Part shown: positions 33,544 through 39,550 of the stretch, piece by piece
How the letters are laid out: each line of letters opens with the position of its first letter
How positions within the stretch are numbered: position 1 is the first letter of the stretch
Source: Longimicrobiales bacterium
GTDB lineage: Bacteria; Gemmatimonadota; Gemmatimonadetes; Longimicrobiales; Gaopeijiaceae
Direction of reading: 5' to 3'
Assembly: GCA_965202805.1 (NCBI GenBank)
Contig: OZ241869.1
Coordinates: 2,048,001 to 2,112,000 of the forward strand
DNA: 64,000 nt
The notes under the pieces: generated by a model
Databases searched by the model: none
What the model saw: the letters and a program-made list of their open reading frames with translations, nothing else
What the model was told of the DNA's origin: nothing
Program-made: the position numbers and the translations under genes

Positions 33544-33597
33544 GGACCGCCGGTCACGGGGGAATCGCCGCCTCCGCCACCTGTGACGGCTGGCAGG

Positions 33598-34176
33598 TCA
33601 GTTCGGAGTCGGCGGCGTGACGACCGCGAGGCGGCCGCCGTCGTCCGGGGTCACCAGGATCACGTCTCGCGCGTCCGCGGAGACGATGGTGCTGAGAACC
33701 ATGGCCGGGTCGCCGGAGGAGTCGGACGGGTCCGGGTTGGCGGCCGGGCTGGTGGTCGAATCGTCGAAGGACTGCGTCGGCGGGTCGGGAAGGAAGCTCA
33801 CTTCGAGCGCGTGACGCCCGGGCGGGATCGGGAAGCGCTCGTGGACGCTGACGGTGCGGGCCCGCGCGCTCGACCGACCCACCGGCCCGGCCCGGAGGGT
33901 GTCACCGTCCAGCAGAATCGTGAGCCGGAAGGACACCGCTTCGTCCGTGCACACCTCCGTCGGGCGCATGTGCGGGAGGACGCCCCTCAGTTCGGCCTCC
34001 GTCGGCGGACGGCATCGCCGGTTGGATGGAGCCGGGATGCGCCACGACACCCGCAGTTCGGCGGCGTCCCCGGCCGAGGAGCGCCACGCGACCCGGGACA
34101 GGAGGACGATCCCGAGCAGGACGGTCACCGTCAGGGCCACGGCCGCCAGCTTCCGCGTGAACGTCGCTGCGGTCAT
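33598..34176 (-). CDS. Single-TM hypothetical protein translationally coupled to the cytochrome b fusion
   Basis: ATGA overlap at 34173-34176; TM helix then 'CRPPTEAEL...HMRPTEVC'. Confidence 0.7.
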   Translation of the reverse strand: MTAATFTRKLAAVALTVTVLLGIVLLSRVAWRSSAGDAAELRVSWRIPAPSNRRCRPPTEAELRGVLPHMRPTEVCTDEAVSFRLTILLDGDTLRAGPVGRSSARARTVSVHERFPIPPGRHALEVSFLPDPPTQSFDDSTTSPAANPDPSDSSGDPAMVLSTIVSADARDVILVTPDDGGRLAVVTPPTPN

Positions 34177-35714
34177 CGGGCCGCCGCCTTCCCGGGCACC
34201 TCGCACTCCGTGTCGATGGCGATCCCGTCTTCCCGGGTGGGGGCGTCGAGGAGCCCCAGCTCGCTCGCGAAATCAGCCCGGGCGCTCGCGAGGGCCTGCT
34301 CGTCGAAGCCGGACGCGTAGACGACCCGTACTCTCCGCCGGTCGACGCGCGCCTGCAGCTCCGCCTCTCTTTCGTGGTACAGCCGCTCGACGAGCCACCG
34401 GGGCCCCTCCCGGCCCCAGCAGTCGCGGGGCGGACACGCCACCACCAGAACACCGCCCACCCCGGCGCGCACCAGGTACTCCACCACCGAACTGTGCAGG
34501 TTGCCCGCGCACGACACCAGGAAGCGGCGGGAGTCCCTCCCCTGGCCCGGACCGGCCGCGGACCGGCCGCACCCCACCACCACGATGTCCCCGCGCCCGA
34601 GCACCCGGCCTGCCGCGAACTCCCTGACGCGGCTCAGCTGGTCCCTGCCGGTGCGGCCGGGCGGCCCCACCCCCATGGGCGCGCACGACCCGGCGCAAAT
34701 GCCGCAACTGACGCAGGCGGCCGGATTCACGCGGGCGACCAGACCCTCGCGCCCGTCGGTGCGTTCGACCATCCGGATGGCGTCCCAGGGACAGTCCACG
34801 TAGCACTGCTCGCACCCGGTGCACAGGCGCGTCGACGCCACCGAGGGCGCCGGCCGGCGGTCGGCGCGGGGACGCGTCAGGAGCGGCACGGCCAGCAGGG
34901 CCGTCCCCACCACCGCCGCGGCGAGCCACACCACCCCGGCGGAGGCGGAGCGGGCCGCCGGCAGCCAGAAGGCGTAGAAGACGTCCAGCACCACCTCCCC
35001 GGGCACCCGCAGCAGCTCCGCCGCGGGCGCCAGCGGGACGGGCAGAAGAACCGCCGCCGCGACCAGCAGCCCGACCGTCCACCGGAGGAGCGGCCGCGGA
35101 GGCAGCATGACCGGCCGGGCGACCCGGGACACGTGCAGCCAGAGAAAGATCACGATGCCGACCGGCAGCGCGATGTGCAGGAAGAGGTTCATGAAGAAGA
35201 AGGCGGCGGGCAGCGGGTCGGCGCCCGAGAAAGTCCGGGATATCGGTTCGGAGAAGAGCGGCAGGGCGTCGAGCAGCCGCGCACCCTCGGCGGCGAGCAA
35301 CTGCCCCTGCGCGTCCCACACCATCACGTAGCCCGTCCAGCCGCAGACGTACAGCAGGAACACCAGGAAGACGCCCGAAACCCAGGCGAGCGCGCGCGGC
35401 CCCCAGCTGCGGCCCTGGCAGAACATCCGCAGGGCGTGGGCGGCCGCGGCGACCACGGCCAGGTCCGCCGCGTACCGGTGGAGCGACCGAATCCAGCGCC
35501 CTCCCCACACCTGGGCATCGATGCGGGCGACGGATTCCCAGGGTGCCCCGATGCGGTAGAACAGGACCAGATAGAGCCCGGTGACGAGCACGACCGCCAG
35601 GCACGCCACCACCAGCGCGCCGGACTGGTAGAGCGGGTTCCACTTCCAGCCATGGAGGCGGTCCACCCAGGAGTCGACGCGCCGCAGGGATTGCCCGAGG
35701 ATTCGCTTGAGCAT
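34173..35714 (-). CDS. Cytochrome b/b6 N-terminal + 2x[4Fe-4S] ferredoxin + MvhD/FlpD-like [2Fe-2S] fusion protein
   Basis: Heme His pairs 'RSLHRYAAD...AAHALR' and 'LFLHIAL...WLHV'; 'CTGCEQCYVDCP', 'CVSCGICAGSC'; 'VGC', 'SCAG', 'ACPPRDCWGREG'. Confidence 0.88.
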   Translation of the reverse strand: MLKRILGQSLRRVDSWVDRLHGWKWNPLYQSGALVVACLAVVLVTGLYLVLFYRIGAPWESVARIDAQVWGGRWIRSLHRYAADLAVVAAAAHALRMFCQGRSWGPRALAWVSGVFLVFLLYVCGWTGYVMVWDAQGQLLAAEGARLLDALPLFSEPISRTFSGADPLPAAFFFMNLFLHIALPVGIVIFLWLHVSRVARPVMLPPRPLLRWTVGLLVAAAVLLPVPLAPAAELLRVPGEVVLDVFYAFWLPAARSASAGVVWLAAAVVGTALLAVPLLTRPRADRRPAPSVASTRLCTGCEQCYVDCPWDAIRMVERTDGREGLVARVNPAACVSCGICAGSCAPMGVGPPGRTGRDQLSRVREFAAGRVLGRGDIVVVGCGRSAAGPGQGRDSRRFLVSCAGNLHSSVVEYLVRAGVGGVLVVACPPRDCWGREGPRWLVERLYHEREAELQARVDRRRVRVVYASGFDEQALASARADFASELGLLDAPTREDGIAIDTECEVPGKAAAR

Positions 35715-35829
35715 GGTGGTGTTCGCCGATTCGGCCGGAATGGACGTCGGGGGATCGCGCTCGCGTCCGCCTCCAGCCGCAACCGATTTCAGCCGGTTTC
35801 GCCGGAGGCCGCGAACGCTTGCGCGAGCA

Positions 35830-35856
35830 TAAGTACCATATCATCATGACCTTATC
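35830..35856. promoter_or_regulatory. AT-rich imperfect palindrome (ATAAG-N17-CTTAT) in divergent promoter region; possible operator
   Basis: ataagtaccatatcatcatgaccttat; only the 5-bp ends pair. Confidence 0.3.
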
Positions 35857-35963
35857 CAGCATAGAGCACCGCGACGTGACCGAAGGCTCGCATGACCTCC
35901 AGGACGGCCGGCAACGCCCTTCCGGGGCGCGCCTGACCCCCAAACCCGAAGGAGCGCACACCC

Positions 35964-36149
35964 ATGGCCGACTCCGTCTCCCCTTCACCGCCCCCGGGTG
36001 ACGAGGACGGGACCCCGGTTCCCCTCATGCAACGCCTCTACGACAGCCCGTTCCTGCTTCTCGCCGCGTGCATCCTGGTGATGTTCGTGTTCTTCACGGC
36101 GTGGGGCATGATCGAAATCATGTCGCTCGAACCCGCACCTTTGCCGTAG
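35964..36149 (+). CDS. Small single-TM subunit of the heme-copper complex (subunit IIa-like)
   Basis: AAGGAG RBS; 'PLMQRLYDSPFLLL...FTAWGMIEI' TM directly before subunit II. Confidence 0.75.
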   Translation: MADSVSPSPPPGDEDGTPVPLMQRLYDSPFLLLAACILVMFVFFTAWGMIEIMSLEPAPLP

Positions 36150-36164
36150 GGAGGGCCGCCGCCG

Positions 36165-36728
36165 ATGTACCGAACGGGAATCGAACCGCCGGAACGGATC
36201 TGGTGGAAGAAGATCGACCGCCACGAGAAGGTATGGGTGTGGATCGCCTTCGCGTGGTGCATGGTGCTCTTCGCGATGATGCCCCTCTGGCACCTGCGGG
36301 GCGGCCAGAACCCCTCCGGGATCCGGCACCGGGTGGAGCCGGCCGACTACCAGGCGAGGGTCACGGAGTTCATCCGGGAATACCAGGTGGGCACCGACAG
36401 CGGCTTCCCCGTAGTCGAACCGCCTCCGGGAAGCGATGTCTACCTGCAGGCGACGAGCTTCGCCTGGATGCCGGTGCTGCGGTTGCAACAGGGAGCCGAG
36501 TACGTCCTCCATCTCTCGTCGCTGGACGTGAACCACGGGTTCAACCTGTACCCCCTCAACATCAATTTCCAGGTCGTTCCCGGATATGACTACGGCCTCC
36601 GGGTGGTCCCCAACGAGCCCGGTGAGTTCCACATCATATGCAACGAGTTCTGCGGAATCGGCCACCACCTGATGGTCGGCAAGATCATCGTCGAGCCGGC
36701 GGACGCGGAACAGGAAGGTGACCTGTGA
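36165..36728 (+). CDS. Heme-copper oxidoreductase subunit II (CuA), B-family type
   Basis: One TM; 'DVNHGF', CuA 'CNEFCGIGHHLM'. Confidence 0.93.
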   Translation: MYRTGIEPPERIWWKKIDRHEKVWVWIAFAWCMVLFAMMPLWHLRGGQNPSGIRHRVEPADYQARVTEFIREYQVGTDSGFPVVEPPPGSDVYLQATSFAWMPVLRLQQGAEYVLHLSSLDVNHGFNLYPLNINFQVVPGYDYGLRVVPNEPGEFHIICNEFCGIGHHLMVGKIIVEPADAEQEGDL

Positions 36729-38446
36729 ACATCTTCCGGACCTGCCCGACGACCGGCCTTCAGGTGCATCGAACCGCCGACCGCCTCATTCAGGCCAACG
36801 CGGTCGCGGCGACCGTGGCGCTCCTCATCGGGGGAATCGCGGCGCTGCTCGTCCTGCTGACGCGCTGGGAGGCCGTCCTCCTCCTCGACGCCGGCATGTT
36901 CTACCGCATGCTCACCGTGCACGGCATGAACATGCTCATCTTCTTCATCATCTTCTTCGAGATGGCCGTGCTCTACTTCGCGTCCGCCGTCCTGCTCAAC
37001 TGCAGGGTGCCGGCGCCCAGGGCCGGCTGGATCGCCTTCGCGCTCATGGTCGGCGGGGCGCTCATGGTCGAGTGGACGATGTGGACGGGCCGCGCCGACG
37101 TCCTGTTCACCTCCTACGTGCCGCTGCGGGCCCACCCGCTCTTCTATCTGGGGGTGATCCTGTTCGCGGTCGGCGCCCTGACCGTGGTCGGCCATTTCTT
37201 CGGCATCCTGACCGTGGCCAGGCGCGAGAATGCGTACGAGGGGTCGATGCCGCTGGTCACCTTCGGAGCACTCACCGCGGCCGCGATCGCGGCGGTCACC
37301 CTGCTGCACGGGGCGATCATCTACATCCCCACCTTCCTCTGGTCCCTCGGCCTCATGGAGGTCGATCCCCAGATGTACCGCCTGATCTGGTGGGGGCTCG
37401 GCCACTCCTCGCAGCAGATCAACGTGGCCGCCATGGTCTCGATCTGGTATCTGCTGGGCGCGCTCACGGTGGGCGCCGTGGTCCTGAACGAGAAAGTCAG
37501 CCGCACGGCGTTCGTCCTCTACGTCCTCTTCATCTCGATGGCCTCCGCGCACCACCTGCTGGTCGACCCCGGGATGGGACCGGCGTGGAAGATCTGGAAC
37601 ACCAGCTACTTCATGTACATGGCCGTTCTGGCCTCGATGCTCCACGGCTTCACCGTACCGGCCGGCATCGAATTGGGAATGCGCCTGCGGGGGGCGACCC
37701 AGGGGCTCTTCGGGTGGCTGAAGCGGGCCCCCTGGGGCGATCCCGGATTCAGCTCGCTGGTCTTCTCCATCGTGGTGTTCGGCTTCGTGGGCGGGATCAC
37801 GGGAGTGACCTTCGGCACCGAACAGATCAACATCATCGCCCACAACACGCTGCGGATTCCCGGCCACTTCCACGCCACCGTGGTGTCGGGGACGGCGATG
37901 GCCTTCATGGGGATCACCTACTACGTCATTCCGCTCATCTTCCGGCGCGAGATCGCCTTCTACCCGCTGGCCCGCATCCAGCCCTACCTGTTCGCCGTCG
38001 GCATGCTGGTGTTCTCGATGGCGATGACCTTCGCGGGCACCTTCGGCGTTCCGCGCAGGCACTGGAACGCCTCGTTCACGGGCGCGGTCTTCCAGCCCGA
38101 GTTCTCGCCCGCCGTCAACCTGATCATCGGCGTGATGGCGGTGGGCGGGCTGATCGCCATCGCCGGCGGCGCCATCTACATCGTGGTGACGGTGGTGTCG
38201 GTGTTCTTCGGGAAGAAGATGGCCGCGGACGATTCGGGGCTGGGCGCCGAGAGACGCGGTCTGCCTCCGGGCATCACCCATCCGCCACGCGCCCTGGTGG
38301 CGGAGGACAGCGAGGCGCTCGAACCCTCGGGCCGCATGGGACCGGTGCCGGGGACGATGGTGCTGGTGTTTATCTTCCTGGCCGCGTTCATCACCTACTA
38401 CTTCGTGAACTGGACGCTGCTTTCGTTCCTGTGGGAGGTCGGATGA
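36725..38446 (+). CDS. Heme-copper superfamily subunit I, probable eNOR-type nitric oxide reductase
   Basis: Six His ligands ('TVHG', 'GHSSQQ', 'AHH', 'GHFH'); helix VI H+4 position is Gln, not Tyr; GTG start overlapping subunit II stop. Confidence 0.8.
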   Translation: MNIFRTCPTTGLQVHRTADRLIQANAVAATVALLIGGIAALLVLLTRWEAVLLLDAGMFYRMLTVHGMNMLIFFIIFFEMAVLYFASAVLLNCRVPAPRAGWIAFALMVGGALMVEWTMWTGRADVLFTSYVPLRAHPLFYLGVILFAVGALTVVGHFFGILTVARRENAYEGSMPLVTFGALTAAAIAAVTLLHGAIIYIPTFLWSLGLMEVDPQMYRLIWWGLGHSSQQINVAAMVSIWYLLGALTVGAVVLNEKVSRTAFVLYVLFISMASAHHLLVDPGMGPAWKIWNTSYFMYMAVLASMLHGFTVPAGIELGMRLRGATQGLFGWLKRAPWGDPGFSSLVFSIVVFGFVGGITGVTFGTEQINIIAHNTLRIPGHFHATVVSGTAMAFMGITYYVIPLIFRREIAFYPLARIQPYLFAVGMLVFSMAMTFAGTFGVPRRHWNASFTGAVFQPEFSPAVNLIIGVMAVGGLIAIAGGAIYIVVTVVSVFFGKKMAADDSGLGAERRGLPPGITHPPRALVAEDSEALEPSGRMGPVPGTMVLVFIFLAAFITYYFVNWTLLSFLWEVG

Positions 38447-39468
38447 GAGAGGGGAGGGACGGTAGCGGGGCCGCCGCCGGGGCTGCCGCGGGCGGGGAGG
38501 GCCACGGGCCGACGGGCGTGAACGGTGCGCCCTCGTACGCGGCCGTTCGCGGGGCGATGGCGGCGATGGCGGCGCTGCTCGCGATCACGGTCGCGTGGTG
38601 GGCACTGGCGCTCTGGCCGGTGGCGGGGGTCCCGCCGGCGTGGCTGGAGCGTGCCCGCCAGGTGTGCTTCAACGCGGGTCCCTCAGGTCTCCCCGACGCG
38701 TCCGGATGGATGCTCCTGGTGGGCCAGCCCATCGGCATGCTGGCGGTGCTGATGGTTGTCGCGGGGGATGCGGTGCGGGCGGGGCTGCGGCGGGCGCGGG
38801 GCAAACCGGCGGGCCGGGTTGCGCTCGCGGCGGCCGCCGGGGCGGTCGTGGCGGGGGCGGCGCTGGCCGGGGTGCGCGTCGCATCGGTTCCGGGGGACGC
38901 GGAGTGGCTGGAGGCCGCCCGCGCCGAGGTGCCCGCCACCTACCCGCGCCTGGACCGCCGCCTTCCGGCCATCGAGCTCGTCGACCAGCGCGGCGAAGCG
39001 TTCACGTGGGAGCGCATCGCGGGCCGCCCGGCGCTCCTCACCTTCGGCTTCGGGCACTGCGAGACCGTCTGTCCCATGACGGTCATGAACGCGCGCCGGG
39101 TCCAGGACCGGTTCCGGGGGGAGGGCCGGAAGATGGCGCTGGTGGTGATCACGCTCGATCCCTGGCGCGACACCCCGTCCCGGCTTCCCGCCCTGGCGCG
39201 ACAGTTCCACCTCGGCGGCGAGGGTTCGCATGCGAATGCGGAGGAAGGCGGCGAAGGCGGGGAGGGCGCGGGGTCCTTCCTGCTTTCCGGCTCGGTAGAT
39301 GAGGTCAACGCGGCGCTGGACGCGCTGCAGGTGGCTCGCGAGCGGGTGCCGCGCACGGGAGACATCGTGCACCCGGCTCTCGTGTACCTGCTGGACGCGG
39401 AGGGTACGGTGGCCTACGCCGCGAGCGCGCACGCCGACCTGATCGAGGAGCTGGCGCGCCGCATGTAG
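38443..39468 (+). CDS. SCO/SenC copper chaperone with N-terminal membrane domain
   Basis: 'LVDQRG', 'FGFGHCETVCP' (CxxxC), 'ITLDPWRDTP', 'IVHPALVYLLD'. Confidence 0.88.
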   Translation: MREGRDGSGAAAGAAAGGEGHGPTGVNGAPSYAAVRGAMAAMAALLAITVAWWALALWPVAGVPPAWLERARQVCFNAGPSGLPDASGWMLLVGQPIGMLAVLMVVAGDAVRAGLRRARGKPAGRVALAAAAGAVVAGAALAGVRVASVPGDAEWLEAARAEVPATYPRLDRRLPAIELVDQRGEAFTWERIAGRPALLTFGFGHCETVCPMTVMNARRVQDRFRGEGRKMALVVITLDPWRDTPSRLPALARQFHLGGEGSHANAEEGGEGGEGAGSFLLSGSVDEVNAALDALQVARERVPRTGDIVHPALVYLLDAEGTVAYAASAHADLIEELARRM

Positions 39469-39550
39469 AGTGCGTCCCCGGGCGCGGCCACGCTCGCCGC
39501 CGGCCGCGACCCGGGACGGACGAAGCTTCCCCCGACCGGGACGGACCAAC

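Follow-up and report, generated by a model that had tools for sequence, protein, structure and literature searches.

The question raised by the heme–copper operon at 35964-39468 of a Longimicrobiales genome segment (GenBank assembly GCA_965202805.1, contig OZ241869.1, positions 2,048,001 to 2,112,000) is whether its product reduces oxygen, as the names of its relatives say, or nitric oxide (NO). The window is this whole stretch of 64,000 nucleotides, and the coordinates given here refer to it unless another contig or locus is named. Public relatives of subunit I are called 'cbb3-type' or 'b(o/a)3-type cytochrome c oxidase subunit I', which is the kind of automatic label that the initial annotation foresaw when it proposed an eNOR-type NO reductase. 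We consider, at a probability of roughly 0.88, that the operon encodes a B-family-derived eNOR, which would catalyze 2 NO + 2 e- + 2 H+ -> N2O + H2O at its heme/metal site.

Subunit I matches PF00115 with 196 bits and retains all six His residues that bind the metals and hemes (H66, H227, H276, H277, H381 and H383). Its helix VI reads WWGLGHSSQQINV, a stretch that falls on the HPxVY motif in the HMMER alignment to Thermus thermophilus ba3 (4gp4) and to 7deg. The residue four positions after the His is Q231, and the HxxxY cross-link motif of the A- and B-family O2 reductases is therefore lacking. Both the six ligands and this Gln had been read correctly at the outset. The same column holds Gln in the window and in 80/80 related loci from genomes (the 80 that ranked highest among 418, which with the window make up the 81 sequences counted here), and the contigs of run X1, possibly the source sample, are identical to the window over subunit I. 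A sequencing error or a strain quirk at Q231 was ruled out, given Gln in 81/81 sequences. Y131, the equivalent of the Trp/Tyr chain residue Y133 of ba3 (Dataset S5), is also kept in 81/81. The AlphaFold model (pLDDT 92.9) has its best fold match in the T. thermophilus ba3 oxidase (B1 family; 1xme, 1ehk) at a TM score of 0.77, and the two systems share the three-subunit layout and K-channel-like residues. They differ, at about 24% identity in the structural alignment, in the replacement of Y237 by Gln, Y244 by Val and T312 by His. The dN/dS values are 0.08-0.13 for subunits I and II and about 0.2 for the cytochrome b fusion gene described below; the structural genes remain under purifying selection.

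According to passages of PMC8756737, Gln at the position of the cross-linked Tyr is diagnostic of eNOR. Identity as bNOR, sNOR or nNOR was ruled out, because the residue is Asn in bNOR and sNOR and Glu in nNOR, but Gln in subunit I (PMC11214002, Dataset S1). The residues listed for the Rhodothermus marinus eNOR in that dataset are Q245, Y256, S318, H321 and E21 of subunit II, the equivalent of Y244 being absent. In the window, Q231, Y242, S304 and H307 follow at a constant offset of 14, V238 occupies the Y244 position, and subunit II has E21. The enzyme is thus like that of R. marinus DSM 4252 (Murali et al. 2024, PMC11214002) in the Gln, in five residues with equal spacing, in a CuA subunit II and in B-family ancestry, and every eNOR-defining sequence feature that was looked for was found. 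Passages of the same paper report that the R. marinus enzyme reduces NO and not O2, that the eNOR family spans 547 GTDB genomes, and, in Dataset S8, that five 'Bin94' Longimicrobiales species are scored eNOR=1 and nirK=nirS=nosZ=0. One locus with a subunit I 91% identical to ours (L007) is tied to a 'Bin94' species by name only. Judged by its residues, the enzyme is an ordinary member of a published, biochemically verified and common family that is already tabulated for the Longimicrobiales.

A FastTree phylogeny of 52 subunit I sequences, from which P0122 and P0123 were dropped as their helix VI is broken, agrees with this assignment. All 18 Gln-bearing rows form a single clade with an SH-like support of 100, and the clustering with Tyr-bearing O2 reductases that would have spoken for an oxidase was not seen. 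The clade includes a Thermomicrobium roseum plasmid protein, from a genome scored eNOR=1 in PMC11214002, and a Thermus plasmid protein with a His/Lys heme-ligand variant; a His/Lys variant at the low-spin heme is mentioned for eNORs in passages of that paper. Four sister sequences (P0126, P0129, P0130 and P0147) read HxxQY, and thus keep the cross-link Tyr; they also have a Gln at position H+3 as well as the His of the channel and the Tyr of helix VII. This sister group looks like an intermediate between the B-family oxidases and eNOR.

The remaining subunits are consistent with this enzyme class. Subunit II has, as first described, one transmembrane segment (residues 22-44, its single hydrophobic segment) and a full CuA ligand set, H124, C159, E161, C163, H167 and M170, with a conservation of 99-100% for each ligand in an alignment of 87 sequences. 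The small subunit is placed by gene order as the small gene that precedes subunits II and I in ba3-type operons. The SCO protein matches PF02630 (E=8e-26) and has C206, C210 and H310. Its N-terminal membrane domain (38443-38900) has no family match and carries a conserved WW-x-LALWP, a near-invariant Cys75 and GW-x-LL-x-GQP; a role in copper or disulfide handling is possible. In the proposed mechanism, NO would be reduced by two electrons, for which the His–Tyr cofactor would be unnecessary. Electrons would pass from CuA of subunit II to the low-spin heme and on to the high-spin heme/metal center. Protons would probably be taken from the cytoplasm through a channel formed by E21 of subunit II, Y242, S304 and H307, and turnover may therefore be electrogenic. 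SCO would load the copper, and heme a would be supplied by ctaA and ctaB, which lie outside the cassette and elsewhere in the genome, unlike the arrangement in R. marinus.

The genome (G000), a single contig that is 98% complete, contains two heme–copper enzymes, the eNOR and an A-family oxidase with GHPEVY, as well as an ACIII-like cluster, ctaA and a ctaB homolog. No match above cut-off was found in it for NirK, NosZ, NrfA, NO synthase or Hcp, and Nap and Nar are not among its four molybdopterin-family matches, three of which were scanned and are Fdh-like, Phs/Psr-like and ActB/QrcB-like, the fourth lying in the nuo operon. The NirK and NosZ models match in 13 and 8, respectively, of 61 genomes (including two unpublished ones, G037 and G056, both of which lack the cassette) and in 0/19 of the own genus; among the 14 eNOR-bearing genomes of this set, NirK occurs in 6 and NosZ in 3. 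The genome check proposed at the start thus turned up ctaA and a ctaB homolog and none of nirK, nirS and nosZ. Since no nitrate, nitrite or N2O reductase was found, the denitrifying respiration that had been offered as one option is unlikely. In this respect the genome differs from R. marinus, which has Nap, NirS, NirK and NosZ according to passages of PMC11214002. Because NO-producing and N2O-reducing enzymes were not found, the enzyme most likely consumes NO of external origin and gives off N2O; the NO might come from neighboring nitrifiers or denitrifiers or from an animal host. The nearest named relatives are Gemmatimonadota/Longimicrobiales metagenome-assembled genomes, and many isolate names among them stem, we presume, from sponge studies. 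Passages of PMC10581226 list sponge and coral symbionts among the Longimicrobiales, and nor-only genomes are treated as likely detoxifiers in passages of Pold et al. (PMC12569097).

The operon is part of a larger cassette. The four genes of the initial annotation (small subunit, subunit II, subunit I and SCO) stand as it placed them, and it had omitted two divergent genes and the remnant of a regulator. The features are as follows.

33544-39547, unstranded: whole 6-kb cassette between two peptidase genes, delimited by site comparison in congeners.
33598-34206, minus strand: partner protein of about 192-202 aa, with an N-terminal transmembrane segment and a beta-sandwich, an invariant Cys pair and His-Met.
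34173-35714, minus strand: cytochrome b (b6-like)-2x[4Fe-4S]-MvhD/FlpD [2Fe-2S]-type fusion, 513 aa, the only PF00033 match in the genome.
35818-35856, plus strand: putative AT-rich promoter/operator-like block (TTGC...CATATCATCATG) 5' of the Rrf2 remnant, from intergenic conservation.
35892-35936, plus strand: remnant of an Rrf2-family regulator, 14 codons, with a 378-nt in-frame deletion relative to loci L001 and L002.
35964-36149, plus strand: small single-transmembrane subunit, 61 aa, in 75/80 loci, placed by gene order.
36165-36728, plus strand: eNOR subunit II, 187 aa, with one transmembrane segment, the CuA site and the channel-entry residue E21.
36725-38446, plus strand: eNOR subunit I, 573 aa, with six His ligands, Gln231 and K-channel-like Y242/S304/H307.
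38443-39468, plus strand: copper chaperone of the SCO1/SenC type, with an additional membrane domain at its N terminus, 341 aa, in 75/80 loci.

In 14 of the 16 congeners that have the peptidase gene of the left flank, the site is unoccupied, its two flanking genes standing side by side. Two genomes (G005 and G013) carry the cassette at the same site and a third (G007) at another; it would be simpler to assume that the cassette was inserted in an ancestor shared by three genomes. Inspection by eye showed neither a target-site repeat nor a mobility gene at the cassette ends. In G007 (L024:9103-11265), the eNOR cassette and a ba3-type oxidase that bears the Tyr are in convergent orientation.

The cytochrome b fusion and its partner gene, which are divergent from the eNOR operon, accompany it closely. 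The fusion was found in all 67 loci that extend 1.6 kb or more beyond subunit I on its upstream side (70/80 overall) and the partner in all 57 that extend 3.6 kb or more; among the 61 genomes, the same 14 carry the eNOR and a full-length fusion. A search started from the fusion (the best 80 of at least 566 loci, skewed to near kin that are not independent) led back to subunit I in 37/38 metagenome loci that reach 3 kb or more upstream, with Gln in 45/45 readable motifs. The accessory pair is also present in the plasmid-borne eNOR operon of Defluviimonas. In the fusion, the heme ligands H79, H93, H180 and H194 are invariant, as are four MvhD-type Cys and seven of the eight [4Fe-4S] Cys, C337 being nearly so. 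Its Qo motif, LDVF, is degenerate and variable among relatives, and quinol oxidation by the fusion is therefore uncertain. The cassette holds no Rieske or cytochrome c1 gene. In the partner, a Cys pair, a His and a Met are invariant; it matched no NCBIfam or Pfam family and had no Foldseek match at E<=0.001. Its best VIA match (Z 7.8) is a generic beta-sandwich, and its Atlas matches comprise only 'hypothetical' clusters and, at 0.80, a single cluster that bears FlpD, which is a lead only.

Two published systems resemble this pair. As described in passages of a preprint (bioRxiv 10.64898/2026.01.22.701106), the eNOR operon of Ferrigenium straubiae likewise has eNOR subunits I and II, SCO and an adjoining cytochrome b-[Fe-S] gene, and its cytochrome b genes are termed unusual and possible Ferrigenium markers. 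Unlike what a marker would require, we find the fusion beside eNOR in Gemmatimonadota, Myxococcota, Spirochaetota and on an alphaproteobacterial plasmid. The Ferrigenium version with FAD/NADH domains, compared by its description in those passages, is missing from our cassette. The PDWF-FeS cytochrome b clade, in passages of Kao & Hunte 2014 (PMC4122944), shares the fusion to 4Fe-4S and MvhD delta domains and the absence of a Rieske partner. Of the three hosts named for it, two (Turneriella parva and Alicycliphilus) are eNOR references in Dataset S4 of PMC11214002. The clade motif is PDWF, as against LDVF in our fusion and DWF in some relatives, and the passages of PMC4122944 do not tie the clade to any NO reductase. 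No published link of cytochrome b plus MvhD with a heme–copper NO reductase was found in a search outside which most subscription journals lay.

An Rrf2 gene lies between promoter and small subunit in 29 of 31 loci whose subunit I is at least 85% identical; of 39 more distant loci, 14 have it at that place, 5 have it in another part of the locus and 20 lack it. The window remnant consists of the first ten and the last codons of a 140-aa Rrf2 gene, fused in frame at a short repeat. The intact proteins of L001 and L002 have three Cys plus a His and score 100 bits against the NCBIfam superfamily model (cut-off 73). Identity of the deleted regulator as NsrR (26-28 bits against 182) or IscR (67-68 against 208) was rejected, as both equivalog cut-offs were missed. 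Contigs bridge the deletion junction in 4/4 runs from three studies, run X1 being possibly the source sample, which rules out an assembly artefact. No other Rrf2 gene scored above cut-off in the genome, and of 18 genomes of the genus, only the three others that bear eNOR yielded an Rrf2 match. Two close relatives (L013 and L074) also lack Rrf2, with no similar remnant in the intergenic region, which suggests a loss independent of that in the window. The AT-rich block at 35818-35856, which we infer to be a promoter or operator, is conserved in the window and 18 relatives in the intergenic alignment; a sigma-70 consensus scan gave no site. Rrf2 proteins are usually Fe-S-sensing repressors, and the loss would for this reason probably leave expression of the cassette unregulated and constitutive. 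No published link of eNOR with Rrf2 was found, most subscription journals again lying outside the search.

How should these components be read together? The fusion and its partner form, in our view, an accessory module dedicated to the enzyme, and we slightly favor electron feed over metal loading by a reductase as its role. The contending explanation is that the pair are maturation factors which reduce and deliver copper or iron much as CcoG, a cupric reductase of the membrane with [4Fe-4S], serves cbb3 oxidase assembly (passages of PMC8267372), and do not donate electrons for catalysis. The invariant Cys, His and Met of the partner would suit such a task, as would the degenerate Qo motif and the cassette's lack of Rieske and cytochrome c1 genes, and ACIII could already feed electrons through cytochrome c. 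Against it, the four invariant heme His and the conserved Fe-S Cys amount to a full transmembrane wire, copper is already served by SCO, and the related Ferrigenium proteins were detected in the proteome alongside eNOR (passages of 10.64898/2026.01.22.701106). We regard maturation as possible, though rather unlikely. A bolder version of electron feed, which we advance tentatively and consider doubtful as it stands, would make the cassette a portable, self-contained NO-respiring unit, in which the fusion and the periplasmic partner form a non-Rieske wire from quinol or a cytoplasmic reductant, and which in this lineage would have turned into a constitutive, energy-conserving sink for the NO of other organisms. 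A further proposal takes the cassette for a decaying or silent relic: the operon would have depended on Rrf2 as an activator and fallen silent once the regulator was gone. It fits the deletion of the regulator in a genome with no other Rrf2 above cut-off and no internal NO source. It fits poorly with six intact genes, with a junction common to contigs of runs X3-X5 that differ by 1-2%, with the retention of the genes in L013 and L074, and with the window-specific changes in subunit I, 28 synonymous to 5 non-synonymous as against 37:7 in the intact-Rrf2 sister lineage, counts that span the whole branch and not just the time since the deletion. We hold the relic to be quite improbable.

The oxygen question itself has to be weighed against the eNOR assignment. 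The enzyme could be a high-affinity O2 reductase that replaces a missing ba3 oxidase and uses another residue, such as Y266 of helix VII, as radical donor. The nearest solved structures are ba3-type oxidases, Y266 is invariant in 81/81 close sequences, and the genome searches revealed no source of NO. Yet Y266 lies 10 residues before the HH pair, and it is also present in the sisters that keep the H+4 Tyr. The helix VII Tyr of the C family lies 6 residues before that pair in 3/3 CcoN loci, where subunit I has I270; a compensating Tyr from helix VII, raised at the outset as a possible objection, is thereby ruled out as far as sequence position can tell. The genome also has no TIGR00780 match, and subunit II is of the CuA type, as against the cytochrome c subunits of the cbb3 oxidases. 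The other three eNOR-bearing congeners have ba3 as well, and the lack of O2 reduction by the R. marinus eNOR speaks in the same sense. We therefore regard O2 reduction as extremely improbable. Several points do weigh against the eNOR assignment and its interpretation. The ba3-type (B1) oxidase present in 13/18 congeners is missing from this genome, which leaves room for a microoxic role of the eNOR. NirS gave no match above cut-off in a search that had no true positive control. The R. marinus enzyme was compared through its published residue list only, not by alignment, and passages of PMC11214002 make it the sole eNOR assayed (kcat 0.68/s). The subunit I tree was computed with FastTree only and holds neither R. 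marinus nor bNOR, sNOR, gNOR and nNOR references. H307, Q230 and Y266 occur in the four Tyr-retaining sisters too, so that Q231 alone truly discriminates. Finally, a search out to 8 kb from the plasmid eNORs of T. roseum and T. thermophilus did not reveal the accessory pair, which is therefore not essential to all eNORs.

Other redox genes were observed elsewhere in the genome. Upstream of the operon for the A-family oxidase lies a cluster of three genes (G000:C1:2512964-2516540, L107). Two of them encode c-type cytochrome proteins and one a 641-aa protein with a partial match to cytochrome bd subunit I (profile 3-248 of 418); no NCBIfam family matched the cluster above cut-off. About a dozen secreted proteins of 800-890 aa with two CxxCH each are scattered across the genome. 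A formate dehydrogenase alpha-like gene (G000:C1:82473-85232, L106) is interrupted by one TGA, which is probably a selenocysteine codon.

To conclude, the main value of this work is a re-annotation, since the kind of enzyme is already known: a gene labelled as a cbb3 or ba3 oxidase would in fact encode an NO reductase. As to the electron supply of eNOR, the cassette limits and the near-perfect co-occurrence point to the uncharacterized cytochrome b/Fe-S pair as a dedicated partner, which can be tested in a cultured host that carries it on the Defluviimonas plasmid. The same co-occurrence argues against the eNOR-adjoining cytochrome b/Fe-S gene as a Ferrigenium-specific marker, and the natural Rrf2 deletion provides a comparison for eNOR regulation. 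Genomes with eNOR escape norB-based surveys of N2O, and a portable NO-respiring cassette, if our tentative reading is true, would be a hidden source of N2O among bacteria that are scored as non-denitrifiers.

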